Source: an uncultured virus (IMG/VR IMGVR_UViG_2049941000_000847) (Duplodnaviria > Heunggongvirae > Uroviricota > Caudoviricetes). From it: a stretch of DNA of 64,000 bases. The stretch is from the IMG/VR virus record IMGVR_UViG_2049941000_000847. One strand, written 5' to 3'. A model generated the notes under the pieces. It did not search any database. It saw only the letters and a list, made by a program, of their open reading frames with translations, and was not told the origin of the DNA. This document shows positions 3,368-63,999 of the stretch, one piece after another (within the stretch, counting starts at the first letter, position 1; each line of letters starts with the position of its first letter). Made by a program: the position numbers and the translations under genes.

Positions 3368-3377
3368 GAGGTAAAGT

Positions 3378-13111: not shown

Positions 13112-13154
13112 GCGGGGTTTACTAGGTACATAAGTCCCAAGGAGAATTTCAAAG

Positions 13155-16637: not shown

Positions 16638-19600
16638 CTACTCCACCAATGACTTGAGAACTCTTATGGCGTATTTTACAATAGTGCCGGAATCGAATTT
16701 TATTGAGTTCACGAAAGCAATCACTGAAAAAATTCCATCCCCACCGCAAGAGGAGCTAAGAGCTTCCGCAAGTTTGTCTCTCTTCCTGTTGTCCTTTAGT
16801 ATGTCCTGCATGGCATTGTCAAGCGCAAAGTTGTTGACAGTTTCCCCGATGGTGAATTTCTTCTTATTTTTATCTTTAAATACAAACGGAGCGCCGTCCT
16901 TTTCTTCCACCTTCTTTATAAGGTAGATCACTATAGCCCTGCATGCCGCATTGGCTCTTTCGGTCTTGCTGCCAGCGTTCGCGTCATATCTGCTTGTGAA
17001 TAGACCGCCATTTCCAGACAATGCATCCTTCATCTGGTCCGTAGTTATTGTCTTCAGTTCCTTTATTATGTTCTCCGCATTTACCGGTTTCTTTTGTTTC
17101 TTGTCCTTGGCTCTTTCAACGGCAAGTTCGTATTCTTTATAGTACTGGGCAAATTCCGCGTCCTTTTTGAATATGTCGTTGCTGAAAACGAAATTTGCAT
17201 CTGCTTCGGATTTTTTGTTTAGAGAAGCAATATACCTGTCGCTCTTCGAGAATTCCAAAGAAGAGATGATGTTCTTTAGCTGAGAGGATTTATTTTCCGG
17301 ATTTCCCGAGATGACCGAAAGTAGCAGCTCTCCGCTATCCTTCGCGGTATCAATATTCATCTTATTTGATTTATCGAACGAAACATTTTCAATTATGCCG
17401 TCTACAACTGCATTGAAGTCGTTTTTAACCACCCCAACCGCAGATCCGATTATGGTATTCTTCATCTTTTGGCTTATCTTTTCACGTTCCGCTCCACGCA
17501 AAGAGAATAGTCTGTCATATTCTTTTTTAAGCTCTTCCTTCTTCGACGGATCGGATTCATTTTCAATGTTTTCCTTTACAGTATCCATTTCTTCGTCGAT
17601 CTTCCCGACCGTGCGCCCGTATTCATCGAAGCTATTATAGAACTTGACCCTTAGATCGTTTGAGGTACTGATTATAAGAAGAAGTATTGCGGCGGCCATC
17701 TTCTGGATACGTTCGTCCGGCGTACCGCAAACATCGATTGAGATTCGTTCTGACACTGATTTCAACTTTTCGTAGTCCTTGATGTTCTTATTGATGAAGG
17801 CGTCATAATATGATCCACCGGAGCCGGTGTTCTTTTCTGCCGTTGTCAGGCCGAGACCACCATATATCATAAGGTAGATCATGTCACCGTATGATATATT
17901 TTCAGGGTTCCTGGATTCGTTGAGTTCGTCTATCAATTCCTGTATCTTTATCGTCATTGAATTTATTGCGTCTTTATGAACCTGGAACGCTTTTTCTGAC
18001 ATAGTCTGTACATCGCCGGTTTCCGGGTACATATCTTTAAAGAGACCACCTCCCTTAAAGTTCATCTCCTCGTTTTTGGTCTTGAGTAGGTCAATTATCT
18101 TGCCATAGGCGTCTCTAATGGAGTCCATTCCGTCCGGGCCGCCATCCGTTCCGATGACAGCATCAAGGAACCTGCGAATTCCGCTATTGTCGTCGAAGAG
18201 GTATCCAGACACATTTCCAAAGTTCTCGTCTCCGAGCGTATCGCACATTCTCTTTGTAAGGTATTCTATGATGCTGTCCGGAACAACCTTTGATATGTGG
18301 TCAATTATGTTTTCGTTTTTGAACTTGTTCGGAAGGTCTTTGTGTTTCGCTGGGTATAGAACGATAGCACATATTTGAGCGACGACTGATGCATATGTAG
18401 TCACGTTCTTCATGGAATCATCGTACGTATTTCGATAGTTTTGCACAGCAGGGAACCAGTCAGGTGCAACCTCGTTTGACACCACTTTACCGCCCCCATC
18501 CCTTGTGTTAAAGCTTCCGGCAAGCGTTGCGATAGTATCGTCTTTCACAACGTCCTCGTTCGGCTCACCGAATACGATGACGTCTTTTCCGAATTTGTTT
18601 TCTTCGCCTATCTTGAAATCGTTTGGCGGGTTGATAGGTATCGCGACGCCATTTTCCACGGTTTCGAATTTATTCAGTAGCGGACGAAGTATGCCTGTGG
18701 CGTCATACTTCGCAACGTTTTCTATTTCGCGCATGATGCGTTCTTCGTCTACGGGTTCCGTTTCGGCTCCTTTTGATCTCAGATCGTCGAAGAACGAACG
18801 CACGGAATAAAAATCTGATTTTCTTGAGTTATACGAGGTGTTTCCTTCGTCGTCTTTCATAATCGTAGGACGACCGCCTTTTTCCAGGATGTTTTGATAC
18901 ATCTTTATTTTTTCCTTTCTTTCTTCCTCGTCATATGTTTTGTATTTGAAGTAAGCTTTGATCGGATCCCAGTCGTTTGGGTGATCCTGACAGTATTCGT
19001 ACATATCGTCCAGGAGCTCCATGTAGTTTTGCGGAAGCTTGGAGATGTTTACAGGAATATCGTCACCGGGATTCTCAAAGGCCTTTTCGTTGCCGTCTGC
19101 CCCACCGCTCCTTTCCTGTCGTTCCGTAACGACGTCACTGATATCTCTTTCCGGCTTCTGTTCACCGGAATTGGAACCCTTCCGTCCGCCTGCTTTGGAG
19201 TCATTCCATGACGACTTTCTCATGTCATCGAACTCTTGGTTTATTATACCGCTTCCTTCCGCGGAGTTTCCGGCTGCCTGCGAATTTAATTCTCTAACCA
19301 GGTTTGTAATTTTGTCATGCGCTTTCGCATAGAACAGAGATTTGAATATGTTTAGCGCATCCGGCGATTTTGCCATGTTCAAGCAGAATATGCATAGCGC
19401 TGTCGATCCACGATCTTCTATTACGGCTCTGTTGTCTTCAACTCCAAGAAGAAGTTTTGCCAGCGCAATGGAATTGTCGTATTTTCCCTCTGTGGCGGTT
19501 ATGAGTCCCTGAGGAATCAAATTGCTGATGTTATAGCATGTTTCCAGCACTCCGGTGCCCTGTCCAAACTTTTCCTTTCGTTCTACTGTGATGTATCCTT

Positions 19601-21099
19601 CTCTGTCGTTTGTTTCGACCACATTGATCTTTCCGACAAGATTCCCGGTTCCGTCGTAATATTTTTTGTGCCGTGGTACATAATGCGCACCGTTGGNNNN
19701 NNNNNNNNNNNNNNATCATGACAGGATCCGGTTCGATAAACATGAGCACACAGCTCCTGAACACTNNNNNNNNNNCGAAGTCCATTTCATTCGGCCAGAC
19801 ATTCGCCGTAGCTTCTCCTTCCCCTGGCATCTTCGCCTTTACAAACGTTCCGTGTGTCGGAAGTTTTGCGGGGGCATTTGCGGGGTCATAGTCCTGTATA
19901 CCGGCGTCTTGCATAGTTGTTCCTATCAAATTGAATTTGAACATGGTCTCAAAGTTCTGCCAGTCCACACCCCGCGTTCTTCCTATTATCCACTTTTTTC
20001 TGCTAAGGGCGTCTTTTACAAGAGTGTAGTAAAGAGCCAGCATTATGTTTTCTCTCGGCGACCCATCTCCTCTGGATTTTTTTAGCTCTTCCATTGTCTG
20101 TGGTTTTAGCTGGAAATCTCCTCTATTCGCTGCGATCGAGTAGAACAGAATTATTGCCGCGGGGAAGTCGTCATACAAGAGACGGCCGCGACCAGGTTTG
20201 CACTCAACCCGATCGACCTCATCTTTGATAAGCTGTGCATCATCTGGATCCAACACGATCCCTTCACCGGACGAGTCCTGATTATCGGACGTCGCAATTT
20301 CAATTTTTTTCTCAAGCGCTTCGGCGTTTTTCCTGTATTTGTCTATGTCCTTCAACCTATCTATTACAAGATCGAGGTCCTTCTTGTATTTCATCGGGAT
20401 CTGCACGGAAGCACTGACCTTTTTGGACATCACATCTTTCATTCTCCCAATCGTGGCTTCTCTCATTTTATTGTATTTTGATCTTATATTTTCCGCCTCC
20501 AACGATATGTCGGTAAGGCGCTTTTCCAGTTCTCCGAAAGTCTTTACATCATCGATGTTCTGTATATTGCTGGCATTTATGTGCGGGGCAGCTTCCTTTG
20601 TTTTTGCATATCCGCCTACATTCTTTAAACTGCCGGTGTCCGACAGTTTGTTTATCTCCACGATCACCTCGTTTATTTTGTCTATTGTCGAGTTTATGTT
20701 GGCTTTCGTGGAATCATCAACCGTTTCATCGGCTGGTTTATCGGTTACTTTATCGTTTTGAGAGTCTATCTCTTTGATCGCTTTGTCGATTTTTGCGCCA
20801 AAATCTTCTTTAATATTAGCAGCGGCGGAGACAGCCTTCTCTCCAAGGAGTTTTTTTATGTTTTCAAGGGAATTTATTTCTTTTCTCAGCTCCATGCTCC
20901 TTTGCACGAGCCCTTTAAAGATATTATATTTTTCCCCAACGTCTTGACCAGAAACACCCGACTCGCTGTCACCGGCTTCCAATATGGCCGCTACCCCGGC
21001 TCTGAAGGATTCCATCAACGTCTTGAATTTTCTTCCGGAAATGGACTCCATGAAAGTACGAAGTTCCTTCATTATTCCACGTCGCTGCTGTCTGTTCAT
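16638..21099 (-). CDS. Very large alpha-helical putative internal head protein (two ORFs, 16638-19622 and 19531-21099, probably one gene broken by gaps at 19697-19775)
   Basis: Long charged helical ORFs; leader TFMESIS...LMES...ILEA; TATAAACT upstream. Confidence 0.55.
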
Positions 21100-21131: not shown

Positions 21132-21143
21132 AGTTTATAAACT
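21132..21143. promoter_or_regulatory. Palindromic bidirectional late-type promoter AGTTTATAAACT
   Basis: Between divergent structural genes. Confidence 0.7.
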
Positions 21144-24820: not shown

Positions 24821-24832
24821 AGTTTATAAACT
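24821..24832. promoter_or_regulatory. Palindromic bidirectional late-type promoter AGTTTATAAACT
   Basis: Between divergent genes. Confidence 0.7.
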
Positions 24833-25431: not shown

Positions 25432-28400
25432 ATGGAACTTCTTTTTAGCTCGCGAAACCTAAATCCAGGAATGACCGACACGGAGGCAGTATCCGGGTGT
25501 GGACAGAATGGGTATGTCAAGAACCTGAAGACATACAACGCAGAGTTCGTGTTTTCGTGGGTTTCTGGAGAGACAGGAGACGAATTCCTTTTCAAGAACG
25601 CTCGCATCAGAATGCTGATGAACAAATGCGCGCAGAGAATACGCGCCGTGGCGGTAGATCCGGACAATGAACATATTCCGACAGGAGAAGGGAACGATGT
25701 GTTCCAGGATTGGTTCTACCACTCGTTTCCCCCGATGATAAAGGGTCTTGACGACCTGGAAGGAAAACCGATCGGGTTCAACAGCGAACTGGTATACTAC
25801 TTCGGAGAAGATTCCTCCAGAGTTCTTAGCAATACGAACAGAGAGGAAAAGATATGCCTCTCCATGTTCAACGAAACGCATACCGGTGAAAAGAAACCAT
25901 CGAAATACTCCGGGTTCCAGTCGTCTTATTCCTATACGGAAGGCGAGTACGCCGTAAGGGCTCCGAGGAACGTGTTCCTAGAATACAAGGACGAGTCTAA
26001 GACGAGATCCGTGACGGACATATCGTTCGAGCAGGTTTCGGGAGACGTGTATGACGTGACGCTGCTCATGTCTTCAAGACATGCGTTTGGCGATACCGGA
26101 ACGGTTTTTTCCGCAACTGTGAAGTGCGGCGATTCGATCGTTTCCGGAATACACGACGCCACCGTGATATCCGAAAAGGAAATACGTTTCAGAATAGAGG
26201 CCGACATAACTCCGGTCTCCGGGAAAACGACAGGAACCGTGGAGCTATGGAACGCTTTCCCCAACACAATGTCGGTCAACTCGGTTTCCTCAGATGACGA
26301 GACCATCACGTTCAATCTCGACCCGGTTCTCCAGGGAGATCTTTACGGGTTCAGAGTCGGAGACGAGCTCGACCTGGTTGGAACCGAATACGAAAATGCT
26401 CTCTCCGCTGAGATAACGGTCATCGACGGGCAAGAAGTAACCGTGCGTCCTAGAAGCGGTACGTTCGGTGGAACGGAGAACCAGCCAAGAGTTCACATCT
26501 ATCCAAGGATTCCATCGTCTGCCATCAGCGTGAACTACCCGCGGGCGGAGATATACGACTACGTACCGGACCACAAGCTATACAACAAGCTGCTTCCTTG
26601 CTCGAAGGACACCGCCGCAAACATCGGGAACGAGTCTTTCCAGAACTATGGAATGACCTCGTCTTATCCAGCTGACGACACGACTCCGATACTCATGTCG
26701 TTCAGAATAGACGACTCTGACATAACCAGCTTGTGTGACTATGCCGCGCTCTCGTTCTATCCGATATCGATCTCCGGAGACGACGGGTTTGGCGCTGTCT
26801 ACCAGATGTCTTCGGATTCGTGGAACGAAACGGACGGCAGAAAGTACTCGGCAGTTTCCGACTACATCCAGGACATGGACTCGTCCACGCCTTACAGGAT
26901 ATCGACCGAGAAGAACTACTATTACGACACTTCCAACCAGCAGTACATCGACGACGAAACCAATACGCAGACGTTGATACTTCTGGAAACTGAACAGATA
27001 GACGGCTGGATGTCCGGAAAGCGGCCGCATGCTCTCAGCTACAGCATATCCAACGACATAAAGCAGACCATAACATCGAAGGACAACAGGTCCGTCTATG
27101 CGTGCCAGGCGCCGTGCATACTTGTTCACACGCCAATACTCAGAGACGTCGGTGTTCCGGGAAACCTCTCTACCATCAACGTAAAGCTTGGCGCGATGAT
27201 ATCCAGCATCGGAGGAAACGGTGGCGTTGTTACCGCGACGACCAGGGAGCCGCACGGGCTCTCCGTCGGAGACAAGATAATCATAACCGAGACTAGGTAC
27301 TTTGACGGAGCTGGCTTCGAGGTGAAATCTGTCGTCGACGAGACAACGTTCACATACGACGACGAATATGCTACCAACGTGACGGAGGTGGACCGCGGCC
27401 GCTTCATGTATTCCGACAAGGCGTACATAACGATGCGTGCCGAGGATTCGGTTCGCATATCGCAGGACATAGACGACATCGTCATAAACAATTTCTCCGA
27501 AGAACACCCGATCTCGATCGACGAATACACGTTCGACAAGAGCGGAAAGTTCGTGGACTTTTCTTTCTGGGTGGCAGAAGACACCAAGAAACTTTCGATA
27601 AAGTCGAAAGACTACGCCGGAAACGAGACGGACGAGTTCTATCCTCCGATAATAATGAAGTATTCGGTGAACGGCGTGGATAATGCCATGTATGGAAACG
27701 GAGATGCCGTTTCCGTCATGGGAATAAACATCGCTTCCACGGAAAAGAACACGACATTCGTGTGCGCCGATGCGAATGCGCTGTCCGGCATAATCGACGG
27801 TGGATACACCCAGACGGCGGAAACCGACTCCGATCGGTCGAGAAAGATTCTTCTCACAGAAAACTCTCAGAAGGAATACGAACTGGTATCTGCTTCCGGC
27901 ACCGAGCTTGAACTTCCGGAAGACTGTACCTGGCCGAAGGTCGGCGACGCCGTCGTGTTCACCGGGAAGATAGGAACGCTTACTTGCGGCTTGCCTTATT
28001 ACATTGTCGGCACGAGAGAAGAATCGGGAAGAAGGTTCATATCGATCTCTTCGTATCCAGGTGGCGATCCGCTTGAAGTCGGTGCGATAACAACTCCGAA
28101 GGCGTATATCGCGAACTGCTTTGTTCCCGTGTATGCCGTGGTCGACGGTGTGTCGTCGAACTATTACGGAAACGTTGCTCGCATAAAGGCAGGAACGCTA
28201 GCTCCGCACATATTCGTGGAAGATGGTCTCGTTTACGGCGAAGAAGGAACGGTGTACATCTACTCGTATGCGCCGGTGCTCAGACAGAACATAACCATCG
28301 AGAACGCGGTCGTCATGCAATACGCACCGAACAACTGCGAATACATGCTGACGCTTTCTCTCGATTCGGTAGGAATCATGTATGTGTCGGTCACCGACAT

Positions 28401-29943
28401 GTGCGGAAATTCAGCGTTCTCTTCATACGCGATAACGTCTTCGGACGGCAGCATTCCTCTTGTTTACTTAAAGGAATCATTCGTCGTCGGAGGTGTTGAC
28501 AGAATAACGTTCGCAGTGAATTCGTCTGCCGTGCCGGATACGGAAACCAGAGGAATAACCTGTCTATCCGACAATGGACAGCCGATTGGAACCGTGGGTG
28601 ATTTCGTTGATACCGACGATGGGTTCGAATTTACCGTCTCGATATCTGGTACCACCGACGGTACGCTGAATGTCAAGTATGTGGACGCGAACGCCGAGTA
28701 TTCCACTTTCGATTCTCCGATCATCATGGACATATCGCCTGACTCCGTTAAGAGCGGTGACGAGATCACAATACGAGGATACAATCTCGTGTTCGACGAC
28801 GGGAACGTGATGTTCTCCGGAATAAACGGCGTCGTACTTAAGTCGAACGCCGGTTCGGTCAAGATACTTACCGAAAACGTGTCGGATGGATATCACAGGA
28901 TCAGCGTGTACGATCCGTCCGGAGAAAAGGTGAAGAGAAGCGAAGCATACACACTGCTCGCAGACTCTACCGCTCCGATCGTATCAATTATCGGTGGCGA
29001 CGTTCTGTACCTCGCCTTCGGCGAAAAATACGTCGAACTCGGCGCTACTGCGGTCGACTCGATGGGTGGCGACCTCACTGACAGAATNNNNNNNNNNNNN
29101 NNNNNNNNNNNNNNNNNNNCCAGCGGGTACGTGGTTCCGAGGAGAATGGGAGAATACCCGATAACGTATTCCGTGAAGGACGACAACGGAAACGTCGGCA
29201 TCGCGATAAGAAACGTAGTGGTCAACAACCAGTGCGGCATACACATCTCTCTTGACAAAACCGACGTGAGACCGGGAGATGTCGTGACGGTAACAATGGA
29301 CACCGGCGAGTTCAATGAATCCATGCCGAAAAACATCGCATATCTGGGCGCATACTCCATGCAGGCGATATGGATGGAGGGGACGAACCGCGCCGGGTTC
29401 GAAATACCGTACGGAGCGGGCAGCGGAGCGTTCTTCGTGTCCGTCTCGAACGGAGGATGCGACAAGAGCAACGCAATACATCTCAACGTGTCATACGAGG
29501 ACACCAAGCTCGACTCCGGCGACAAGGAAGCCGAGTCCATATTCGCAAGCGGAATAGGTTTGCCTGCCATGTACAACAGAGACCTTTCCTACAGCAGATT
29601 CACGGAGCACACGGACGAGAACAGCATAATCCAGAACGTGATGAGCATCATACTCACGAAGCGTGGCGAGCGCCTGTTCAACCCGGACTTCGGCACGAGG
29701 ATACACGAGAAGCTGTTTGAACTTATGGGACCGAGCTCCGTCGTGGAAGAAGAAGTGTTGAACATGATAATCAAGGCCGTCAACATGTACGAACCGAGAG
29801 CCGTCATAATAAAGTCGGAATCGTTCGCGACGTTCGACGAAAACGCGCATACTATAAACGTTGTATTGAAGGTTGTCGTTCCGGGCGGAAACGCCAGAAC
29901 CGTAGGCGTGACACTTCACAGCTACAGATACGAGGCGATGTAG
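25432..29943 (+). CDS. Large baseplate protein: beta-rich Ig/IPT domains with C-terminal gp25-like domain
   Basis: SIIQNVMSIILTKRGERLFNPDFGT...AVNMYEPRA (gp25/GPW); ISPDSVKSGDEITIRGYN (IPT); YVELGATAVD (Ig); PHGLSVGDKI. Confidence 0.8.
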   Translation: MELLFSSRNLNPGMTDTEAVSGCGQNGYVKNLKTYNAEFVFSWVSGETGDEFLFKNARIRMLMNKCAQRIRAVAVDPDNEHIPTGEGNDVFQDWFYHSFPPMIKGLDDLEGKPIGFNSELVYYFGEDSSRVLSNTNREEKICLSMFNETHTGEKKPSKYSGFQSSYSYTEGEYAVRAPRNVFLEYKDESKTRSVTDISFEQVSGDVYDVTLLMSSRHAFGDTGTVFSATVKCGDSIVSGIHDATVISEKEIRFRIEADITPVSGKTTGTVELWNAFPNTMSVNSVSSDDETITFNLDPVLQGDLYGFRVGDELDLVGTEYENALSAEITVIDGQEVTVRPRSGTFGGTENQPRVHIYPRIPSSAISVNYPRAEIYDYVPDHKLYNKLLPCSKDTAANIGNESFQNYGMTSSYPADDTTPILMSFRIDDSDITSLCDYAALSFYPISISGDDGFGAVYQMSSDSWNETDGRKYSAVSDYIQDMDSSTPYRISTEKNYYYDTSNQQYIDDETNTQTLILLETEQIDGWMSGKRPHALSYSISNDIKQTITSKDNRSVYACQAPCILVHTPILRDVGVPGNLSTINVKLGAMISSIGGNGGVVTATTREPHGLSVGDKIIITETRYFDGAGFEVKSVVDETTFTYDDEYATNVTEVDRGRFMYSDKAYITMRAEDSVRISQDIDDIVINNFSEEHPISIDEYTFDKSGKFVDFSFWVAEDTKKLSIKSKDYAGNETDEFYPPIIMKYSVNGVDNAMYGNGDAVSVMGINIASTEKNTTFVCADANALSGIIDGGYTQTAETDSDRSRKILLTENSQKEYELVSASGTELELPEDCTWPKVGDAVVFTGKIGTLTCGLPYYIVGTREESGRRFISISSYPGGDPLEVGAITTPKAYIANCFVPVYAVVDGVSSNYYGNVARIKAGTLAPHIFVEDGLVYGEEGTVYIYSYAPVLRQNITIENAVVMQYAPNNCEYMLTLSLDSVGIMYVSVTDMCGNSAFSSYAITSSDGSIPLVYLKESFVVGGVDRITFAVNSSAVPDTETRGITCLSDNGQPIGTVGDFVDTDDGFEFTVSISGTTDGTLNVKYVDANAEYSTFDSPIIMDISPDSVKSGDEITIRGYNLVFDDGNVMFSGINGVVLKSNAGSVKILTENVSDGYHRISVYDPSGEKVKRSEAYTLLADSTAPIVSIIGGDVLYLAFGEKYVELGATAVDSMGGDLTDRXXXXXXXXXXXXSGYVVPRRMGEYPITYSVKDDNGNVGIAIRNVVVNNQCGIHISLDKTDVRPGDVVTVTMDTGEFNESMPKNIAYLGAYSMQAIWMEGTNRAGFEIPYGAGSGAFFVSVSNGGCDKSNAIHLNVSYEDTKLDSGDKEAESIFASGIGLPAMYNRDLSYSRFTEHTDENSIIQNVMSIILTKRGERLFNPDFGTRIHEKLFELMGPSSVVEEEVLNMIIKAVNMYEPRAVIIKSESFATFDENAHTINVVLKVVVPGGNARTVGVTLHSYRYEAM

Positions 29944-42746: not shown

Positions 42747-42891
42747 NNNNNNNNNNNNNNNNNNNNNNNNNNNNNNNNNNNNNNNNNNNNNNNNNNNNNN
42801 NNNNNNNNNNNNNNNNNNNNNNNNNNNNNNNNNNNNNNNNNNNNNNNNNNNNNNNNNNNNNNNNNNNNNNNNNNNNNNNNNAAAACGAGGA

Positions 42892-44634: not shown

Positions 44635-45675
44635 ATGTCTAGCATGTTCGAGTTGAATTTCGAAAACGAAAAGAAAAACATCCCCAGCCGTACGGAGAAC
44701 CAGAAGGATGATCGCTTCTGGAAGCCCGACGTGAAGAAGACGCCTGATGGCCGATACATGGCCCAGATCCGCATTCTTCCACAGGGCATCGAGGGCATTC
44801 GCGACAAGAAGCCCGTCTTCGTCGAGCAGCACACCCACATGTATCGCGACGAAGCTCACAAGGTGTCTCTGTTCGCCAAGTGCCGCAAGACTCTTGGTCG
44901 CAACGAGCATTGCCCGATCTGCGAAGCCAGCTGGGCGATGTACAACACCAAGCAGCCTGCGATGCAGGAAAAGGCTCGCCATATCCGCGCGTCCATCACC
45001 TACATCGCCAACGTTCTCATTGTGGACGACGACGTCCATCCTGAGAACAACGGCAAGGTTATGCTCTGGCGCATGACCCAGAAGAACTACGAAACCCTCA
45101 TCGCTCCTCTGAACGAGGACACCAAGGCGGAAAACCGCTTTAAGAAGACCCAGCGGTTCGTTCCGTGGTCTCCGATCAACGGTTGCAATTTCAACGTGAT
45201 CGTGACCATTGGCAAGAACGGGTTCCCGGACTACTCCGAATCCTGCTGGGATTCCGAAGGTCTCTCGAACCTCGCCGATGACGATGCCGGTATCGAGGCC
45301 ATCCTCGCCAACTGCTACCAGCTCGACGAATTCCTCGGCGACATTCCCACCGAAGAAGAACTCGCTCGTCGCTATCAGGAATTCTGCGACACGGTCAGCA
45401 GCCGTGAGCAGAGCGCAGTCCTCGCCTCCGTCAACGGCAATGTCAGCATGGAAAACGTGCACGTGGCCGGTGATCCCGTCGGACAGCGCAACGAGGCTCC
45501 AGCGGCTCCCGCGGCTCCCGAACCCGCTGCCAACAAGTTCGACATGAGCGATGGCGCTTCCGTCGCCGCGTTCATGCAGAGCCAGACGAAGACTGTGTCC
45601 CGGGCACCCAAGCAGGCTCCTGCCGCCGCTCCGCAGGTGCAGGGTACCGACGAAGACGACGATCTTCCGTTCTAA
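44635..45675 (+). CDS. Single-stranded DNA-binding protein (T4 gp32-like)
   Basis: DDRFWKP, IRILP, CPICE, YIANVLIVDD.HPENNGKV, GCNF, DY.ES; acidic tail DDDLPF. Confidence 0.92.
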   Translation: MSSMFELNFENEKKNIPSRTENQKDDRFWKPDVKKTPDGRYMAQIRILPQGIEGIRDKKPVFVEQHTHMYRDEAHKVSLFAKCRKTLGRNEHCPICEASWAMYNTKQPAMQEKARHIRASITYIANVLIVDDDVHPENNGKVMLWRMTQKNYETLIAPLNEDTKAENRFKKTQRFVPWSPINGCNFNVIVTIGKNGFPDYSESCWDSEGLSNLADDDAGIEAILANCYQLDEFLGDIPTEEELARRYQEFCDTVSSREQSAVLASVNGNVSMENVHVAGDPVGQRNEAPAAPAAPEPAANKFDMSDGASVAAFMQSQTKTVSRAPKQAPAAAPQVQGTDEDDDLPF

Positions 45676-52507: not shown

Positions 52508-52663
52508 TTGGTGTCCTTTGGCGTCCTGGTCGACCACCTATAATATAGTATTTTTCGACTGTACATGGCATGGTAGGACCGGTCCTGCCTAGAAAAATGT
52601 GGGGGACTTATATACCTAGTTCCGCCAAAAAACCTATATTATATCCAGAAAACCAAAATAACA

Positions 52664-53946
52664 ATGCTGAAGGGAATTCAAATTCGAATCTATCCAAACA
52701 AGACCCAGCAGTCCGAAATCCTTCGGACGCTTGGGACTTGCAGATTCATTTGGAATACAGTATTGTCTGATGACATTAAGTCATACAAGGAAACCGGGAG
52801 ATTTGGTCATCGAGACAAGAAGCAATTGAAAACCGACTTCCCGTGGATGGGGGAAGTCGGCGAACAACCGAAGGACAATGTTTTTGTCAACTACAGAAAA
52901 GCGATGAGTAATCGCTTTTCGAAGAAACGGAAGAAGAAGGTCGGGTTTCCTCGCTTCAAGTCGAAGCGAGGAACGGAACGGTATTCGGTTTGTACAACCT
53001 CTTGGTTAAAGGATGGTCGATCCTGCATGGCCAGGATCGACTCAGACAGCAAAATAAAGCTGTCGCGCCTGGGCGAAGTCAAGTTCCGTTCCGGATTCGA
53101 CTTCGAATTCCTAAAGAAACTCAAAGTCAACAAGTACACGATCACTAAAACTTGTTCGGGGAAGTTTTATTGTTCGTTGTTGGTCGATGTTGAAGTTCCT
53201 GCGTTGCCCGCGGCAACGCAGTGCATCGGAGTTGACCTTGGTGTCAAGGACTTTGCCGTCTGCTCAGACGGAAAGAAGTTCGATGGACCTGACTATAAGA
53301 AGATCGATAAGAGGATTGTTTTCCTCCAGAAGAATTTGTCGAGAACCCAGGAGGGTTCTCGAAACAGGGAGAAAGNNNNNNNNNNGTTGCGCATGAGCGC
53401 AAGGCCAACATGAGAAGGGATTTTCTCCAGAAATTATCTTCCAAACTGGTAAACGAGAACCAAGTTATCTGTTTGGAAGATTTGAACGTGCGGGGAATGG
53501 TCAAGAACCATTCATTGGCACGTTCAATTTCTGATCAAGGTTGGAGTGAATTCGTTCGAATGATCGACTACAAGTCTCGTTGGTATGGACGGGAAACGGT
53601 CAAGATTGACCGTTTCTATCCGTCCAGCAAGACTTGTAATCACTGCGGATTCAAAAATTCCAACCTGACATTAGACGATAGAGAATGGACCTGTCCTTCA
53701 TGCGGGAATGTTCTTGACCGCGACATCAACGCGGCCAAGAACATTCTCCGCGAAGGAATAGAGTCATTAACGAACCGAGGGGGACTCGGGGATAGCCTGT
53801 GTAAACTTAGGGAGAAAGTAGACAGCGAAAGCTGTCAAGGATTACCCCCAAATGAGCAGGAAGGCCAGGTCGAAACGCCTAACGGCGTTTCAGACCGGCT
53901 AGGTTATAAACTTAGTTTGACACATGTTGTGGAACTAGGTATATAA
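52664..53946 (+). mobile_element. tnpB: Solo TnpB (IS200/IS605, IS1341-like) RNA-guided endonuclease; frame break coincides with N gap
   Basis: IRIYPN..Q HTH, GFPRFKSK, RuvC GVDLG / LEDL / DRDINAAKNI, Zn finger CNHC..CPSC; no transposase nearby. Confidence 0.9.
53770..53908 (+). ncRNA. Putative TnpB omega/reRNA scaffold
   Basis: Hairpins CCGAG-gggga-CTCGG and GGTC-GAAACGCC-taac-GGCGTTTC-a-GACC overlapping the tnpB 3' end; boundaries approximate. Confidence 0.5.
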
Positions 53947-53979
53947 GTCCCAACTATTAGCAGCAAGACAGGTGCTCTC

Positions 53980-54270
53980 ATGATGAAAAATCGGCAAATT
54001 TTCATGGAATCGATAAGCTCTCTCGGCATAGACAAGGACCTTGTGGATGCCATAGCGGCCATCCACGAAGCCGTTTATGCCAGCGAACCGACTCGGGAAA
54101 ATACCTCAATTCGCTCCAGATTCGTTAAGTCTCTGGAAAGATGCGGAATCGAGCACGCGATGTGCGAGGCGATCGCCGATGTGTATGCTCAGGTTTATGG
54201 GAAGGACCTATCAACGGAACCGACGCATAATCAAGCAAGAGGACCAATATGCATATGTTCGAATACGTGA
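53980..54270 (+). CDS. Small protein made of two copies of the helical leader motif
   Basis: FMESISSLGIDKDLVDAIAAIHEAVY and FVKSLERCGIEHAMCEAIADVYAQVY; TATAAACT at 53905-53912. Confidence 0.6.
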   Translation: MMKNRQIFMESISSLGIDKDLVDAIAAIHEAVYASEPTRENTSIRSRFVKSLERCGIEHAMCEAIADVYAQVYGKDLSTEPTHNQARGPICICSNT

Positions 54271-55907
54271 AAAGGGTGCCTGGACACAAGAACTCCAAAG
54301 GAGAATCGGCTCCTTGGACCATTGTTTCGCACGAAACCGGCAAGATCATATCGTCTCACAAGACGAAGAAGGCCGCCGAAGAACATTTGAAATGGATGGA
54401 CATATACAGCAGAAAGTCCAAATACAAGAAGAAGTCGAAGATGGAAAGCATGATGGAGGAACAGGGTATGGACCAGACTATGGGTGATGAGAATACGTTG
54501 GAAGTATCCGAGGAGCTGAAAAATATGGATAAAAAATACGAACTCACGGATGAGACAATGGAATGGGATTGGCCCGAGACTCATATTCTTCATAGAATCA
54601 GGGCACTCAAGGACTTCTCCACCGCGAACTACGTGATTGGTGACGTGAAGGCCGGGCAACTTGGTGGTTGGGTTGAATCAGAAGACAATCTTAGCCAAAA
54701 AGGAAAATGTTGGGTATCGGGGAATGCAAAGGTATATGGGGGAGCCAAGGTGTACGAAGATGCCTCGGTTATGGGGCAGGCATTAGTTTTTGACAATGCC
54801 AAGGTATACGGTGGCGCGGCTATATACGAAGACGCTGAGATATTTGGCGACGCAAAGGTGCACGGAACGGCCCATGTGTACGGTGGTCGCGAAAGATACA
54901 ATGACTACGATGAACTGCAATATTTTAAAACATTGGTCCATGGTAACGCGGATATTTGTACTGGCGTAATCGGACGCGGAGAAACTGTCACAGAAGTCAA
55001 ACCTCCGTACGGGATATCCATCAAAACCATCGATACGAACGACGATTACGACAATCTCTTCGCCGAATCCATCTCACAGCTCGGCCTAAGCAAGGCGCAG
55101 ATGGAAGCTGTCATGCGCATACACGACATAGCGTACGGAAAGACTCTGCAGGAAGGGCGCATATCTAACGCGCTCGGAGCCGGCGCTCTTGCCGCCATAA
55201 TGGCGACCTCTCCGGCGAATGCGCAGAATCCTTCGGAATACTATAACCGCGGCGCAGAAGTTGCGGGCATCGAAGAACCGGATGCATTGACAGACGAACA
55301 GATACAGGAGATCAACGAAAAAATGAGGGATAAGTATCTGGACGGGATCAATTCCCTCAAGCCGTGGAACGGGGTCGCCGAAGACGTGAACACCGGCGAC
55401 TACAAGTACACGATACGCCCCATCAAAGAAATAGACGACGCCGCTGGCAAGATAAGAGAAAAAATGCGCATGCTTCTCGACATGAACATAGACATCGACG
55501 AGCAGTTGAAGGCAAATGACATCAAACATCTCGACAACTTGCTCGAAGAATGGAAGAGAGATCTGCTTGAAAACATGAATTCGCTTGTCGGGCGGAGCAT
55601 AGACACGGTCGAATGCCGGAACACGTTTGGCATCGGATATGCCGACGACCCAGAGAAGGCGGACGAGATCGCGATAAAGGACGCCATCAAGACGTTCAAG
55701 GACCACAGGCCAATACCGCACGGGTACAAGCTTGTTGTATATCCGGACTTCGCCCGCAAGATCATACATCTTCCGGACGGAATCGGAGAAGGGTATGTCA
55801 AGTATGTGACTGGCGTGGTCGTCCACACCGTGCCGGACAGCGAATACCTTGACGTTCCGGAATACCTAAGAGTAGGAAACATCAGCGAACTGCCGACCAC
55901 CAGGTAA
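54249..55907 (+). CDS. Modular putative head protein: small N-domain, left-handed beta-helix module, leader motif, internal signal-like peptide, C-terminal domain
   Basis: KKYELT..LHRIRALKDF..GGWVESEDNLSQ.G.CWV plus hexapeptide repeats AKVYGG. Confidence 0.75.
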   Translation: MHMFEYVKRVPGHKNSKGESAPWTIVSHETGKIISSHKTKKAAEEHLKWMDIYSRKSKYKKKSKMESMMEEQGMDQTMGDENTLEVSEELKNMDKKYELTDETMEWDWPETHILHRIRALKDFSTANYVIGDVKAGQLGGWVESEDNLSQKGKCWVSGNAKVYGGAKVYEDASVMGQALVFDNAKVYGGAAIYEDAEIFGDAKVHGTAHVYGGRERYNDYDELQYFKTLVHGNADICTGVIGRGETVTEVKPPYGISIKTIDTNDDYDNLFAESISQLGLSKAQMEAVMRIHDIAYGKTLQEGRISNALGAGALAAIMATSPANAQNPSEYYNRGAEVAGIEEPDALTDEQIQEINEKMRDKYLDGINSLKPWNGVAEDVNTGDYKYTIRPIKEIDDAAGKIREKMRMLLDMNIDIDEQLKANDIKHLDNLLEEWKRDLLENMNSLVGRSIDTVECRNTFGIGYADDPEKADEIAIKDAIKTFKDHRPIPHGYKLVVYPDFARKIIHLPDGIGEGYVKYVTGVVVHTVPDSEYLDVPEYLRVGNISELPTTR

Positions 55908-55927: not shown

Positions 55928-57901
55928 ATGAACATGGAAAAGAAGTACGAATTCACAGATGGAGAAATGGAGTTTGGCGGACACACCCTTCACAGAATTC
56001 GCGCATTGAAATCATTTGACTATGTTTCCGCAGGCGACATTGGTGGCTGGATAGAATCAGAGGACAACCTCAGCCAGGAAGGCGACTGCTGGGTCATGGG
56101 TGAGGCAAAGGTATTTGGAAACGCGAGAGTATATGGAGATGCATGTATCGCCGGAGATGCATGTATATATTTGAACGCAAGAGTTTACGGTGATGCGCTT
56201 GTCGATGACACAGCACAAGTCTATGATAGAGCACAAGTTCATGGAAATGTCGTTGTGGTTGACAACTCTCGCATATATGATATAGCCGAGGTATATGGGG
56301 GAACAGACGACGAGGAAGAAGTTGTTATTAGTGGTGGCGCGCATATATGCGGCAAATCAAAAGTCAACCACAGTGTTTCCGGGGGAACCGTAGAAGAGTA
56401 CCCTGTTGTAGGCGTTACAAAATCAGGAAATGGTCTAAAGTACAAGTTCGCAAATGAAAAGTATTATGAACCAAAGACACGCGTAGACGAGGATGGCCGT
56501 GTCCATACAGTACGTCGAATAATTGCACTTAAGTCTTTTAGAGATGTCGAAAAAGGAACCATAGGTGGATGGATTGAACATGAATATAACCTTAGCCAAG
56601 AGGATGATTGCTGGGTATACGATAATTCAAGTGTATATGGAGACGCATCTGTTTCTGGTAATGCGAAGATCACCGACGGTGCTTCCGTGTTCGGCAATGC
56701 CGAAGTATACGGTTCGGCAATGGTAACAGGAAAAGGTACTCGTGTATATGGAGAAGCCACCGTTCGTGATGTCGCAACGATATGCTATGGAGCGAATGTT
56801 CATGGAGACGCGTTTGTTTGTGGCAACTCGATTGTCGGCGGAACCGGTAAAGATATTTCGGGTGGTATCTTTTCAGGATCGGAAAAAGAACGGAAAAAAT
56901 ATGAGTTGACAAATAGAACGGGGATTATTGATGGACACAAACTCCACCGGATTCGCGCCCTTAAGAACTTCGGCAATGTAGAGAGGGGTGCTATTGGCGG
57001 GTGGATTGAGTCTGAATCAAATTTGAGTCAGGAAGACGATTGTTGGGTCTATTCAAATGCGATGGTGTTTGGAAATGCTGTTGTATCCGGGGATGCGCAA
57101 ATTAGAAACACAGCAAGGGTGTTCGAAAATGCAAAGGTGTATGGAAATGCAATAATCTCCGGCAATGCCCGCATACACGGAATGGCGAATATATGCTATG
57201 ACGTTTCCAAGGGAGACATCACAAAGTCAAAAGAAATTAATAAAAAACGCGATGACAGTGAGCATGATTCCGACGGCAATACGATCGGAGATCTAATCGG
57301 AAAACAAATTAGGGAAAAACTGGTTGAAGAAGAGCCGAATACAGTTAATGAAAGCGTGGACATCGTTAGAGATGTTCTAGGGCTATACGGTCCGCTTGCC
57401 AAGCTGAACGAACCGGTAATGTCCTGGATAAACACGAAGCAGCTGTCCATACGCGAATCAAACGAGGAAATGACTCGTCTCGAAAACGACCTGTACGTTC
57501 TTGGACATGGGATGATACGGTCGTCTCGCTCGTCTTCCATCCTTGAAAGCACGTCTGTTAACACTACGATGGATGAATTCATGGAAGCGGTCGAAGACGC
57601 TTTCCAGAAAGAGGTTGACGAGCAGGACTCGGTCGAGGAACTTGGCGGAGGACCGGCAACGGAAGACATCGTTAAAATCGCCGGAGCCACCATACTTGAG
57701 AAGGCCAAACGCGTGAAGCTGAATTACTTCGACGAGATAACGGACGACAACGTGAATGAATTCAAGGACCTCCTCGAAGACGAGATCGCGGAATCCGACG
57801 GCGAGAACATTGTAACGATAACAAACGTAAACGTCGAAGATGGAAGGACGATCGTAAAAGGACGCCTCATAAACGGTTCATCGTTTAAAATAGAGCTTTA
57901 G
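55928..57901 (+). CDS. Protein with three left-handed beta-helix modules and acidic C-terminus
   Basis: Three copies of KY..-R(I)(R/I)ALK.F-GGWIE.E.NLSQE.DCWV plus hexapeptide repeats; NES and LES sites. Confidence 0.8.
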   Translation: MNMEKKYEFTDGEMEFGGHTLHRIRALKSFDYVSAGDIGGWIESEDNLSQEGDCWVMGEAKVFGNARVYGDACIAGDACIYLNARVYGDALVDDTAQVYDRAQVHGNVVVVDNSRIYDIAEVYGGTDDEEEVVISGGAHICGKSKVNHSVSGGTVEEYPVVGVTKSGNGLKYKFANEKYYEPKTRVDEDGRVHTVRRIIALKSFRDVEKGTIGGWIEHEYNLSQEDDCWVYDNSSVYGDASVSGNAKITDGASVFGNAEVYGSAMVTGKGTRVYGEATVRDVATICYGANVHGDAFVCGNSIVGGTGKDISGGIFSGSEKERKKYELTNRTGIIDGHKLHRIRALKNFGNVERGAIGGWIESESNLSQEDDCWVYSNAMVFGNAVVSGDAQIRNTARVFENAKVYGNAIISGNARIHGMANICYDVSKGDITKSKEINKKRDDSEHDSDGNTIGDLIGKQIREKLVEEEPNTVNESVDIVRDVLGLYGPLAKLNEPVMSWINTKQLSIRESNEEMTRLENDLYVLGHGMIRSSRSSSILESTSVNTTMDEFMEAVEDAFQKEVDEQDSVEELGGGPATEDIVKIAGATILEKAKRVKLNYFDEITDDNVNEFKDLLEDEIAESDGENIVTITNVNVEDGRTIVKGRLINGSSFKIEL

Positions 57902-57970: not shown

Positions 57971-58834
57971 TCAGGACTTCATCCACTTCAGCAATTCGTC
58001 TCTGCAAGAATCGTAAGCGGAATTGCCAAGTTCTATCAACTTTGTGATGTTCTTGCTCGAAGCGTCGTCCATTTCGCAATCGACCTTTGGACTAACCCTG
58101 AATACGTTTTCTTCCCCGAGATTGGCGCAAAGCTCAAAGTAATTGGAGTCGCCCGCATTTGCAACGTTCTCGATGAAATACTTTGCCCATTCCAAGAGAG
58201 TTTTATTTCCCTTGTCGCTGTGTTTGAAGACCCCGCCTGTATTGAAACACAGGACTTTGTAGTCTCCGAACTTCGGATACTCCTTTTTGATACCAGACTG
58301 TAGAACCATGCACGGATCGTTACCCCACAACCCCCCGTCGCAATATGATTCTCCGTCCTTCACGACAACATCGAAGTACGTAGGGGCGGAGCAGCTGGTC
58401 AATACCGCGAACCACTTGTCAACGTCCTTGTCTCCCTTGTCCCAGACCTTTTCAACGCTATGTCCATTCATGTGCGTCGTTGGTATGAATACAGGAATCT
58501 TGAATTCCGACATCTTTCCCTTAAGAACGTCCTTTAGAATGTTCTTCAGATTGGTGTTGTCGTATGTCGGGTACTTCGGAAGTATCCGTTTGTATACTGG
58601 GTACTTCGTGAAGATCTTTGAGCCCTTGTTCACATATAGGTCGGTTATCTCTGCGGCGCTCAACCCCTCGGCCAGAGCAGCGGCGATTATGGAACCGGTC
58701 GATGTACCGGAAACCGCTTTTACCTGTTTTGCCATGGATTTTCCTAGATCAGATTCCAGACGCAGGAGGAACTGGGAAACCCAAAGACCTCTAATTCCAC
58801 CGCCATTTACAGAAATACAGAGCTTTTTTGACAT
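57971..58834 (-). CDS. Patatin-like phospholipase
   Basis: GGGIRG, GTSTG, SAPTYF, DGG; TATAAACT at 58860-58867. Confidence 0.92.
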   Translation of the reverse strand: MSKKLCISVNGGGIRGLWVSQFLLRLESDLGKSMAKQVKAVSGTSTGSIIAAALAEGLSAAEITDLYVNKGSKIFTKYPVYKRILPKYPTYDNTNLKNILKDVLKGKMSEFKIPVFIPTTHMNGHSVEKVWDKGDKDVDKWFAVLTSCSAPTYFDVVVKDGESYCDGGLWGNDPCMVLQSGIKKEYPKFGDYKVLCFNTGGVFKHSDKGNKTLLEWAKYFIENVANAGDSNYFELCANLGEENVFRVSPKVDCEMDDASSKNITKLIELGNSAYDSCRDELLKWMKS

Positions 58835-58970
58835 TGAAACCCCTATGTTCTTTGAATTTAGTTTATAGGATCGACCGATTAGCAACGTTCTCTCGAAAAA
58901 TAACCTATATTAAATTCGGAACCGTTGGTACCTGCAGCCTGGAAGGCTTCATGTGCCAGAAGGGGGTTAA

Positions 58971-59981
58971 ATGGCTCAGAAAGAAGTGTCGACAAAGGTG
59001 ATTGAGGAAATCTCCAATAGGATTTTGAACAGCTCTTCCGCCAAGAAGAGCGCTCCGCAGAAGCAGGCGTCTCAGCAGAACGCAATGCCGTCAATGAATG
59101 GAATGGATCTTGACAGCATAAACCGCATCGCGAAGTCGACTCCTCCACCAACGGCTGCTCAGATGCAGGAATATAGCGTACCGTCCGGTGGAGACGAAGA
59201 TGTCGGTATGCTGGAATCTGCCATGTTTGGCGGTGGATCGGATGCGTCGGCTCCGATCTCCATAGACGGGAATCCGGCATTGGCGGCAAGAGCGGCCGCG
59301 GCAAGAGCAAGAAGCCGTCTCAACGAGCAGGCAAGCTACGGTGGCGGTGGCGCTGAAATCTACGGGTCTGGAATAAACATCGACAATATGGACGATGCGA
59401 CAAAGGCCCGTCTGTGTGGGTATGACAACATGCCGCAGGGTCTTTACATCAAGGGCATTGGACATGTGAACAACGTTGCCCAGAACAGGAAAATCGCCGC
59501 GGAAGCGGCCAAGCAGGCTAATGCTTCACGACAGACGCAGGAAGCCAAGCAGACAGGCGTTCAGGTGCAGGCCAAGAAGACGCAGATCCAGCTCAACGCG
59601 CCGGACACCAACATGCCCCCGTACGAAATGCTGATGTACGACGACAGGTACGAGATCTACGTAGACCTCCCAGGTGTTTCTCCTGAGAACCTGAACGTGG
59701 AGTATTCCAATGACGGCTCCCTTGTCGTCTCCGGCACAAGGGAATCGTACGCAACCGGGCGCGAGCCAAAGGATCAGGCCACCGGAAAGAAGAAGCAGAA
59801 AAAGGCCATCCAGCGCATAAGCACGGTGCCAAAGTGCCAGCTAGGCAAGTTTTCGTTCGAGTTCCCGCTAAAGAAGATGGTTGACGAAACCAATATCAAG
59901 GCTGAACTAGACAACGGGATCCTCCACGTGACTCTGCTCCACCGCATAAAGGGCGAAAAGGTGCGGATCGCGTTAATGTAG
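58971..59981 (+). CDS. Hsp20/alpha-crystallin protein with long low-complexity N-terminus
   Basis: YEIYVDLPGV..ENLNV...LVVSG.R...GKFSFEFPL...IKAELDNGILHVTL. Confidence 0.85.
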   Translation: MAQKEVSTKVIEEISNRILNSSSAKKSAPQKQASQQNAMPSMNGMDLDSINRIAKSTPPPTAAQMQEYSVPSGGDEDVGMLESAMFGGGSDASAPISIDGNPALAARAAAARARSRLNEQASYGGGGAEIYGSGINIDNMDDATKARLCGYDNMPQGLYIKGIGHVNNVAQNRKIAAEAAKQANASRQTQEAKQTGVQVQAKKTQIQLNAPDTNMPPYEMLMYDDRYEIYVDLPGVSPENLNVEYSNDGSLVVSGTRESYATGREPKDQATGKKKQKKAIQRISTVPKCQLGKFSFEFPLKKMVDETNIKAELDNGILHVTLLHRIKGEKVRIALM

Positions 59982-63171: not shown

Positions 63172-63999
63172 TTATTTTGATGAGCCATCGAGCGCCGCAA
63201 ATGCATATACGGCTGTCTTGCCGTTTTGATTGACGAACTTGTATATAACGTTCAAGTCTTTTCCGCTTACGCTTGTATTGACCAGCTCGCCATCATGGCT
63301 ACCGCTTAGAACCCTTGCAGCCTTGACTTCCATGGAATGTTTGGCCTTGTTCCTGGCCATTTCCATGCTCTTTGCCTCGCCCTTCGCGATAACATATGGC
63401 TTGCCGTTCAGCTGCTTTATTTGCTCGGCGAACAGCTCGGCACCTTCCTGGTCCTGTTCCACGACCTGCTCGGTAGGAGCCTGTCTGGATATTGGAGCAT
63501 TGTCTGGTGTGGCAGCGTCCGCGTTTCCAGGTGTTCCGAGAGCCAGAGCGCCGGCGACGATAGCAGCCTTCCCAACGTTCTTCAGTTTGTCCATCATGCT
63601 TTCGTCTATCGCCATATCCGGATACATTACGTTGTGGATCCGCACGATGGCTTCCAACTGGGCTTCGTCCAGACCGAGGCCGATCATTGATTCTATGAAC
63701 AGGGTGTTCTTCTTGTTTGGATCTATGGAGTCAACAGATTCTTTTATGTTGCCCTTCGATACGTCCCGAGCTACTACAGCCTTCCCTCCAATTTTCACAT
63801 TACCAGATATCTTTGCGTTGTTTACGATCGAAGCATCGCCGTACACCTTTGCTTTATCAAATACCTTCGAACCCTCAGTCGTTTCCTCGTCGTTAGGACC
63901 ATATACCCAGCAATTTCCATTGTGGCTAAGGTTATTTTCCGATTCAATCCAACCACCGAGATCTCCGATTTTAATATAACCAAATTTCTTTATCGCTTT
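63172..63999 (-). CDS. Modular putative head protein (5' end outside window): beta-helix module, leader motif, internal signal-like peptide, C-terminal domain
   Basis: Frame open to window edge with GDLGGWIESENNLSHNGNCWV; LFIESMIGLGLDEAQLEAIVRIH. Confidence 0.75.
   Translation of the reverse strand, partial: KAIKKFGYIKIGDLGGWIESENNLSHNGNCWVYGPNDEETTEGSKVFDKAKVYGDASIVNNAKISGNVKIGGKAVVARDVSKGNIKESVDSIDPNKKNTLFIESMIGLGLDEAQLEAIVRIHNVMYPDMAIDESMMDKLKNVGKAAIVAGALALGTPGNADAATPDNAPISRQAPTEQVVEQDQEGAELFAEQIKQLNGKPYVIAKGEAKSMEMARNKAKHSMEVKAARVLSGSHDGELVNTSVSGKDLNVIYKFVNQNGKTAVYAFAALDGSSK

Follow-up and report, generated by a model that had tools for sequence, protein, structure and literature searches.

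The DNA analyzed here (hereafter the window) is a stretch of 64,000 nucleotides (nt) from an uncultured large tailed phage (IMG/VR record IMGVR_UViG_2049941000_000847), and this work concerns four of its genes, called S, A, B, and C. Two of them, A and C, harbor within the encoded protein a short segment resembling a signal peptide, which is preceded by a conserved leader and by a junction ending in glutamate. Gene A (54249..55907, + strand) codes for a protein of 552 amino acids (aa) embedding, in this order, an N-terminal 'HKNSKGE...HLKWM' domain, a beta-solenoid, the leader, the LQE-G junction, the signal-like segment, and an orphan C-terminal domain (C-domain). The small N-terminal domain (approximately residues 1-64; 54249..54440, +) gave no match in phage records or Pfam; it is also the N-terminus of P0012, one of the C-type relatives described below (61 aligned columns, E-value 1.4e-38 with hhalign). 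The YdcK-like beta-solenoid module (residues 93-237; 54525..54959, +) matches phrog_5070 and phrog_7964 with E-values of 1.4e-42 and 9e-39, respectively. The leader, LFAESISQLGLSKAQMEAVMRIHDIAY (55059..55136, +), is predicted to form two helices (H6-15 and H21-35 in the model, with low values of the predicted local distance difference test, pLDDT). The L-Q-E junction, a candidate Glu-specific processing site followed by Gly, spans positions 55146..55154 (+), and the signal-peptide-like segment (55155..55223, +) is made up of GRISN, ALGAGALAAIMA, and TSPANA, followed by QN; the whole junction-to-signal sequence thus reads GKTLQE-GRISNALGAGALAAIMATSPANA-QN. The C-domain, i.e., the 227-residue C-terminal part (55224..55904, +), begins with an acidic linker and goes on with a hairpin of helices and a beta-alpha-beta-beta-beta unit.

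Gene C (63172..63999, - strand) is cut by the end of the window, beyond which its N-terminus lies, and the 275 aa that are left exhibit the order solenoid, leader, IDE-S junction, signal-like segment, and LPP20-like C-domain. The beta-solenoid module (residues 1-79, cut by the window end; 63763..63999, -) matches phrog_5070 (E-value 5.8e-23), and is followed by the leader, LFIESMIGLGLDEAQLEAIVRIHNVMY (63622..63699, -), by the I-D-E junction and then Ser (63601..63609, -), and by the signal-peptide-like segment (63514..63600, -), which consists of SMMDKLKNVGK, AAIVAGALALG, and TPGNADA, then AT (PDMAIDE-SMMDKLKNVGKAAIVAGALALGTPGNADA-AT). The linker and the C-domain (the 113-residue C-terminal part; 63175..63513, -) contain a beta-alpha-beta-beta core. 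The two proteins share 31% identity in a BLASTP alignment (E-value 2e-23) spanning the solenoid and the leader. At the sequence level, the preliminary description of this DNA, which had reported a common order of parts in A and C (solenoid, leader, [IL]-x-E site, signal-like segment, C-domain) and had placed the two segments at 55155-55223 (GRISN...SPANA) and 63514-63600 (SMMDK...GNADA), proved to be exact.

The other two genes flank A. Gene S (53980..54270, +; 96 aa), whose 3' end overlaps the start of A by 22 nt, is a tandem repeat of the leader motif lacking any signal-like segment; its two copies, FMESISSLGIDKDLVDAIAAIH (54001..54066, +) and FVKSLERCGIEHAMCEAIADVY (54121..54186, +), were located by a regex scan and by alignment, and the comparison of S with the leader of A gave E-values of 2e-5 and 7e-4. 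Gene B (55928..57901, +; 657 aa) has neither the leader nor the signal-like segment, and its product combines three beta-solenoid modules in tandem with an acidic region at the C-terminus. The solenoids of B match phrog_5070 in three stretches (E-value 1.9e-127) and a YdcK-like profile (E-value 2.6e-9), as well as PF18836 (36.7 bits versus a cut-off of 30).

We use the term cassette for the leader, the junction, the signal, and the C-domain taken together. The search of 5.8 billion clustered proteins and 1.84 billion representatives retrieved it in only 10 proteins, all coming from a few metagenome contigs: the A-type relatives P0001-P0007 (49-100% identity) and the C-type relatives P0011-P0013 (44-93% identity), none of which has a Pfam domain or a name. 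The same 10 proteins, and no others, were returned when a profile of the leader plus signal was compared with longer proteins. No relatives of the A cassette were detected in IMG/VR, JGI metagenomes, GTDB genomes, or phage records (tblastn, E <= 1), the cassette profile gave nothing meaningful against PDB sequences, and a blastn search with genes A and B matched one piece of 79 nt in a Paenibacillus phage. A further candidate, the repetitive protein P0008 (E-value 1.6e-5), emerged from the exhaustive search of the representatives, which yielded two true relatives; it was regarded as spurious.

The relatives differ in what lies ahead of the cassette. P0011 (192 aa), which is 93% identical to C across a query region of 184 residues, and P0013 start about 15 residues ahead of the leader, whereas P0007 (291 aa) begins at the leader itself, and none of the three has a solenoid. 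In P0012 the small N-terminal domain of A alone precedes the cassette, and in P0013 a second, diverged copy of the LPP20-like C-domain is inserted between the signal and the conserved domain. The cassette is, thus, a movable unit found behind different N-terminal modules or behind none, and it is lineage-specific, belonging to a small clade of uncultured phages.

The leader is an acidic, two-helix motif of about 28 aa, and the reading frame is continuous from leader to signal in each of the 11 sequences. In the alignment of six A-type sequences, invariant columns are most densely packed from the leader through the junction into the start of the signal; L300, E302, and G303 are invariant in all six, and P2 is Q, H, or N. 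The junction has the form [IL]-x-E-[GS] in 11 sequences out of 11, where P3, P1, and P1' are fixed, and P2 (Q/H/N/D) and P4 vary. The A-type junctions are TLQEG, TLHEG, and SLNEG (the last one in P0007), and those of the C-type are AIDES or AIDEG (AIDE[SG] in 4/4). The (L/I)-x-E site that had been noticed upstream of the signal is, therefore, present in both genes and conserved throughout the family, and the combination of fixed P3, P1, and P1' with a free P2 is the pattern that a T4-type site would be expected to show. The stretch 'LS..Q.EAV' also brought to mind leaders of the double-glycine or Nif11 type, but this idea was set aside, since no GG/GA motif comes after it.

The cores of the two segments are the most hydrophobic 11-mers of their own proteins, with Kyte-Doolittle values of 2.02 for A (ALGAGALAAIMA) and 2.23 for C (AAIVAGALALG). 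The corresponding 19-mer means (1.21 and 1.06) are too low for a stable membrane span, so that the segments are signal-peptide-like rather than transmembrane-like. Each core consists of 11-12 uncharged residues, essentially Ala, Gly, and Leu, which is within the range of approximately 7-15 residues of signal cores, and a K or R lies no more than 10 residues upstream of it in 11/11 sequences. The n-regions drift considerably (GRISN, GKLSN, SMMDKLKNVGK, GVVDTLKNVGK, GVIGDIAKKAVKTVKT), that of P0013 being longer and more basic. Past the core, every one of the 11 sequences has a helix breaker (Pro/Gly) and then small residues at positions -3 and -1 (SPANA, SPAKA, SPVNA, TPGNADA), the cut-site boxes being ANA, AKA, VNA, and ADA. 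The predicted cut is followed by an acidic, lysine-poor linker, and the A-type segments share six invariant residues (N307, A308, G310, A311, G312, and A316). All seven A-type sequences have Q at +1, which is the rule for the substrates of signal peptidase I in Bacteroidetes (PMC5837995). We counted this residue, which fits the rule if the host is of that phylum, as weak support only, because Shine-Dalgarno-like motifs precede 23 of the 55 gene starts of the window (compared with 79 of 474 internal ATGs). On the whole, the idea that the segment looks like a real export signal was strengthened, in that the succession of n-region, hydrophobic core, and c-region with small residues at -3/-1 is kept in 11/11 sequences despite the drift, and we consider it probable that the segment is, in some form, a true Sec signal cleaved by signal peptidase I.

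The C-domains were compared through structural models. That of C, built from four sequences (pLDDT 50), was searched with VIA-align against 48,161 chains; with a model of this confidence, the first rank was taken by 4kzs_A, i.e., HP1454 of Helicobacter pylori (Z 7.2, root-mean-square deviation (rmsd) 3.3, 70 aligned), and the second by 5ok8_A, i.e., Lpp20 of the same species (Z 6.7, rmsd 4.7, 91 aligned). A second look brought up Tip-alpha, FlgT (3w1e, Z 5.0), and RcsF, all Z scores for this domain being lower than 8. The first match in the Atlas is a 'putative LPP20 lipofamily protein' (0.86), and the Pfam LPP20 family (PF02169) reached an E-value of 0.62 in one of the four C-type members, which is below the gathering threshold, none attaining E <= 0.01. 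The lipobox Cys after the signal is absent in 4/4 C-type sequences. All these matches (LPP20/HP1454, FlgT, Tip-alpha, and RcsF) are extracytoplasmic proteins, and the models suggest, weakly but repeatedly, that the C-domain of C is LPP20/HP1454-like and has an envelope fold.

The C-domain of A was modeled with a pLDDT of 70-84 across fragment residues 125-287, that is, its C-terminal 160 residues. Foldseek found nothing at E <= 0.001 in either PDB or BFVD, and neither Pfam nor the Atlas gave a usable match. In the VIA wide search, the best Z of the A-type model (6.4) fell on the low-confidence helical part, and a second look did not exceed 4.5. Residues 191-270 recurrently retrieved, at noise level (Z 3.1-4.0), BP26 (4.0), dodecins (3.6), HP1454 (3.5), and FTT1539c; these recurring weak partners hint at a shared beta-alpha-beta-beta core and nothing more. 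The proposal that both C-domains are LPP20/FlgT-like envelope domains therefore stands in part: structure, Atlas, and Pfam (E-value 0.62) give weak convergent support for C, and there is none for A.

As for the solenoid, relatives of this module occur in 87 phage records, 63 of which cover at least 80% of the query. Their hosts include Streptococcus, Liberibacter, Bacillus, and Bacteroides, among others, and most of the listed records are 36-48 kb in length (range 5-221 kb). No structural annotation was found among the 25 of these 87 matches that were listed. Indirectly, this suggests that an accessory role in the cytoplasm might suit the solenoid better than a place inside the head.

On the basis of these data, our preferred and still tentative interpretation, to which we assign somewhat less than an even chance, is that the cassette of A and C serves for Sec export from within the protein, under the control of the leader, while the cell is infected. 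It builds on the anatomy of the cassette, its conservation, the modular N-terminal context, the fact that A offers no internal start, and the weak resemblance of the C-domain of C to envelope folds; from these features we infer the export, the cleavage by signal peptidase, the topology, and the role of the leader. According to this model, the protein would be synthesized in the infected cell, where the Sec machinery of the host would read the embedded segment as a start-transfer signal lying within the chain. The C-domain would then move to the periplasm and host signal peptidase I would cut after the A-x-A box, while the upstream leader, the beta-solenoid, and the small N-terminal domain would remain in the cytoplasm. 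The leader and the junction might represent a 'pro' element gating or timing the use of the signal, and it is possible that gene S, with its two leaders and no signal, joins in this gating. We favor a role in the infected cell because it requires no unobserved virion biology and agrees with the variety of modules at the N-termini and with a solenoid that looks like an accessory part.

Several points weigh against this interpretation. The signal is not N-terminal, being separated from the N-terminus by about 300 residues in A and by no fewer than 134 in C, with the core beginning at residue 308 of A and 145 of the window-cut C, and, in the shorter relatives, at approximately residue 60 (P0011), 67-75 (P0013), and 46 (P0007). 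Ordinary Sec signals are N-terminal, and a core that is short and rich in Ala would be poorly suited to being recognized co-translationally. The LPP20 resemblance of C rests on a model with a pLDDT of 50 and on middling Z scores, with Pfam far below threshold, and the C-domain of A has no envelope-type match, LPP20, FlgT, and HP1454 not standing out among its partners. The presence of Shine-Dalgarno-like motifs at 23/55 gene starts is not typical of Bacteroidota, the group to which the +1 Q would point. Lastly, an export cassette working in the infected cell leaves unexplained why the leader and the junction are the best conserved parts and why S has two leaders.

Among the other possible explanations, the one that survives best, which we regard as unlikely, denies any export role: the segment would be a hydrophobic helix packed with the leader in a soluble bundle, and the A-x-A box would be fortuitous. 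In the AlphaFold models, the leader and the segment do appear as a row of three helices, at a low pLDDT of 27-50, and a loose signal-peptide heuristic is not enriched in the window, giving 7 matches in 65 open reading frames (ORFs; 20,012 aa) versus 6.8 in shuffled sequences. A strict pattern, chosen after the data had been seen (a 10-residue uncharged core, K/R upstream, P/G, and A-x-A), behaves differently, matching only A and C among the 65 ORFs; the shuffles gave a mean of 0.28 matches, with two or more in 14 of 500, and when the single proteins were shuffled the pattern appeared in 22 of 3000 cases for A and in 32 of 3000 for C. The two matches are not independent events, since A and C are paralogues. 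A fortuitous origin is also difficult to reconcile with the recurrence of the n-region, core, c-region, and A-x-A succession in both paralogue groups, the sequences of which are unalignable in this region, and with the envelope-type fold suggested for the C-domain of C.

It is also conceivable, and in our opinion quite unlikely, that the segment is a membrane-active peptide, either a weak signal-anchor or a segment of the signal-arrest-release (SAR) type that would tether the protein and later free it, or, if exposed by cleavage, an N-terminus similar to a fusion peptide, with which an ejected protein would insert into the host membrane. The segment is rich in Gly and Ala and low in hydrophobicity, as is typical of class I viral fusion peptides and of the SAR domains found in T4 RI and in the endolysins of phages, and the six invariant residues between N307 and A316 make the A-type segment more conserved than ordinary signal peptides. 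SAR domains, however, are N-terminal, and the helix breaker and the A-x-A box that follow the core in 11/11 sequences point to cleavage by signal peptidase I; moreover, the C-domain of C resembles soluble periplasmic proteins.

The scenario originally put forward for these genes appears more doubtful still. The leader would target the protein to the capsid, where a T4-type prohead protease would cut after the Glu, and the signal, placed at a new N-terminus, would act after ejection, directing the C-domain to the envelope of the next host. In detail, the new N-terminus might be either a signal or a membrane-inserting peptide, the cargo would be ejected unfolded and taken up by Sec into the periplasm, the solenoid and the other upstream parts would be co-packaged cargo, and the product of S would count as a small peptide of the core that bears two targeting units. 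This scenario draws on the internal proteins of T4, which lose their capsid targeting sequence of 10 residues to gp21, an enzyme cutting C-terminally to Glu, and are then ejected into the host (PMC9026906). The conserved leader preceding a variable cargo parallels these proteins, and the retention of [IL]-x-E-[GS] in 11/11 sequences with variable P2 and P4 is what such a protease might impose. A head protease of this type is conceivable in a phage encoding a gp32-like single-stranded DNA-binding protein (SSB) with T4-like matches and a gp25-like baseplate domain. The scenario would also account for two facts that the export cassette of the infected cell leaves aside, i.e., the conservation of the leader and the existence of S, each leader of which is followed by x-x-E; the residue after this Glu, however, is Pro. 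Similarly, a late-promoter-like TTATAAACT lies 76 nt upstream of S, but this copy is inside the 3' end of the tnpB ORF and may therefore belong to the inserted element. Moreover, no family of prohead protease, capsid, portal, scaffold, or any other head gene was matched among the ORFs of the window, the leader is internal in A and C whereas the T4 targeting sequence is N-terminal, the listed relatives of the solenoid lack structural annotation, and a literature search found no precedent for the re-export of an ejected protein.

A last explanation concerns translation. In C, an ATG-ATG (63597-63592, M135/M136) directly precedes the n-region, and P0011 shares this Met-Met; an internal start at MMDK might yield an ordinary secreted protein, the long form being a separate cytoplasmic protein. 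The possibility, raised in the preliminary description, that internal starts are simply used as separate genes does not hold for A, in which no ATG, GTG, or TTG occurs between M289 and the hydrophobic core, and a Met is absent from this stretch in 7/7 A-type sequences. The Met after IDE is missing in P0012 (GVVD) and P0013 (GVIG), and no Shine-Dalgarno-like motif was found ahead of the internal ATG of C, which is weak evidence because only 23/55 gene starts have one. Since A has no internal start and P0012 and P0013 do not share the Met-Met of C, the separate translation of the secreted part is no general explanation, and, applying to the C-type only and facing a leader in frame with the signal in 11/11 sequences, it is the least probable of those considered.

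Concerning the expression of these genes, the palindromic motif TAGTTTATAAACTA / TTATAAACT occurs 11 times in the window versus 0.22 expected, with sites at 1889-1900, 8355, 10418, 21132-21143, 24821-24832, 37109, 53904, and 59991. The TTATAAACT copies lie mostly upstream of gene starts, in the tail/fibre-like region, and three are palindromic pairs between divergent genes. The motif looks like a late promoter, resembling that of T4 (TATAAATA). A second motif, AAAWMCTATATTA, in the form AAA[AT][AC]CTATATTA, occurs 14 times versus 0.12 expected (between 11492 and 63158) and is found upstream of replication/recombination genes, tnpB, the Hsp20 gene, and a RuvC-like gene; it looks like an early or middle promoter. 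A 17-mer, CTAGGTAYATAAGTCCC, is located upstream of S, of an exonuclease gene, and of a phosphoesterase gene. The gene coding for TnpB (IS605 OrfB / Cas12f-like TNB; 52664-53946) lies between the exonuclease gene and S and is split into two ORFs by a masked N run (53376-53385). On either side of it, in inverted orientation, stands a copy of the 17-mer CTAGGTATATAAGTCCC (52603-52619 on the minus strand and 53935-53951 on the plus strand), a third copy of which occurs at 13122-13138.

The remaining genes of the window, whose GC content is about 49%, include the gp32-like SSB (44635-45672), a tail tube gene (15980-16612), a DnaB-like helicase, a primase, DNA and RNA ligases, and an RNA polymerase sigma factor. 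The SSB gave 1835 matches in phage records; those listed, 12 in number, come from T4-like phages infecting Synechococcus, Campylobacter, and Caulobacter, and Escherichia and Synechococcus phages lead the tally by organism name. All the matches of the DNA ligase in phage records are below 60% identity (25.6-31.5% among the 15 listed), and a scan of IMG/VR with this ligase for related genomes found none; the 994-aa ORF adjoining the tail tube gene (16641-19622) had no match in phage records. A 1503-aa protein (25432-29940, +) carries the gp25-like baseplate wedge domain at its C-terminus (residues 1392-1481), with TIG and Ig-like domains ahead of it, and is an unusually large fusion for gp25. 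Two adjacent large proteins (1928-6080, +) contain Fib_succ_major domains (E-values 1e-15 and 6e-9), which hints at a Fibrobacter or Bacteroidota-type host. An acidic DUF5661 protein of 299 aa (946-1842, -), with two repeats of this domain (E-value 3.1e-22), lies behind a late-type motif. A patatin-like phospholipase gene (57971-58885, -; E-value 9e-23) and a gene for an Hsp20 domain protein with a 200-residue low-complexity N-terminal extension (58971-59981, +) are divergently transcribed, and the sole transfer RNA gene of the window is a tRNA-Lys (UUU) at 11574-11646 (+). The window contains 17 masked N runs totaling 343 bases (e.g., 42747-42881 and 29088-29119), and the gene models near them are approximate, because several ORFs, including those of the helicase and tnpB, are interrupted.

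Signal peptides are expected at N-termini. In this family, a segment with the look of a canonical signal always comes after a conserved leader and a Glu junction that does not vary. If the signal works internally, one gene would give rise to a cytoplasmic part and a periplasmic part; if a protease unmasks it, the phage would possess a gated route for delivering proteins to the host envelope. In the case of packaging, cleavage, and ejection, pre-made envelope effectors, such as an LPP20-like domain, might be placed before phage gene expression. Either outcome would add a rule to the annotation of phage secretomes, in that current predictors limited to N-termini would miss signals of this kind.

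The cassette can be compared with different known systems. Bitopic membrane proteins with the N-terminus inside and the C-terminus outside, and the internal signals of viral polyproteins that host signal peptidase cuts, join a module on the cytoplasmic side to an exported C-domain through a hydrophobic segment within the chain, as A and C would do; here, too, signal peptidase would split one translation product into two. The core of the cassette differs in that its length and its weak hydrophobicity would not make a stable anchor. We know of no bacterial or phage example of an internal signal with a conserved leader ahead of it. SAR domains, as in phage endolysins and T4 RI, share with the segment its weakly hydrophobic, Gly/Ala-rich nature and belong to phage proteins aimed at the periplasm, but they are N-terminal and devoid of a canonical A-x-A box, whereas the segment of the cassette is internal and has one. 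The C-domain of C weakly resembles the LPP20 family and its structural kin (PF02169; Lpp20, HP1454, the N-domain of FlgT, Tip-alpha) in its predicted beta-alpha-beta-beta core and probable extracytoplasmic setting, and differs from it in lacking the lipobox Cys, in its Pfam score far below threshold, and in being phage-encoded.

To our knowledge, none of the cargos of the T4 internal proteins carries a signal peptide. The similarity to these proteins (IPI, IPII, IPIII, and Alt; PMC9026906) lies in the short conserved leader, the motif ending in Glu, and the variable cargo, in a phage whose replication genes are T4-like. The targeting sequence described there consists of 10 residues at the extreme N-terminus, whereas the leader of the cassette is a two-helix motif of about 28 residues that is often internal. 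A close parallel to the segment itself is offered by the signal peptides cleaved by signal peptidase I in the Sec pathway, with which it shares the basic n-region, the core of 11-12 residues, the breaker, the small residues at -3/-1, the acidic start of the mature part, and, in the A-type, the +1 Q of the Bacteroidetes rule (PMC5837995). It departs from them in being internal (by 45-60 residues in the shortest relatives and by approximately 300 in A), in always lying behind an acidic leader, and in the unusual conservation of the A-type core. A literature search retrieved no earlier case of an internal signal in a phage protein that is packaged or ejected, which is weak evidence of absence. 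Thus, signal peptides, gp21-type sites, and LPP20-like domains are all already known as such, and it is their fixed combination, shuffled as a unit, that appears to be undescribed.

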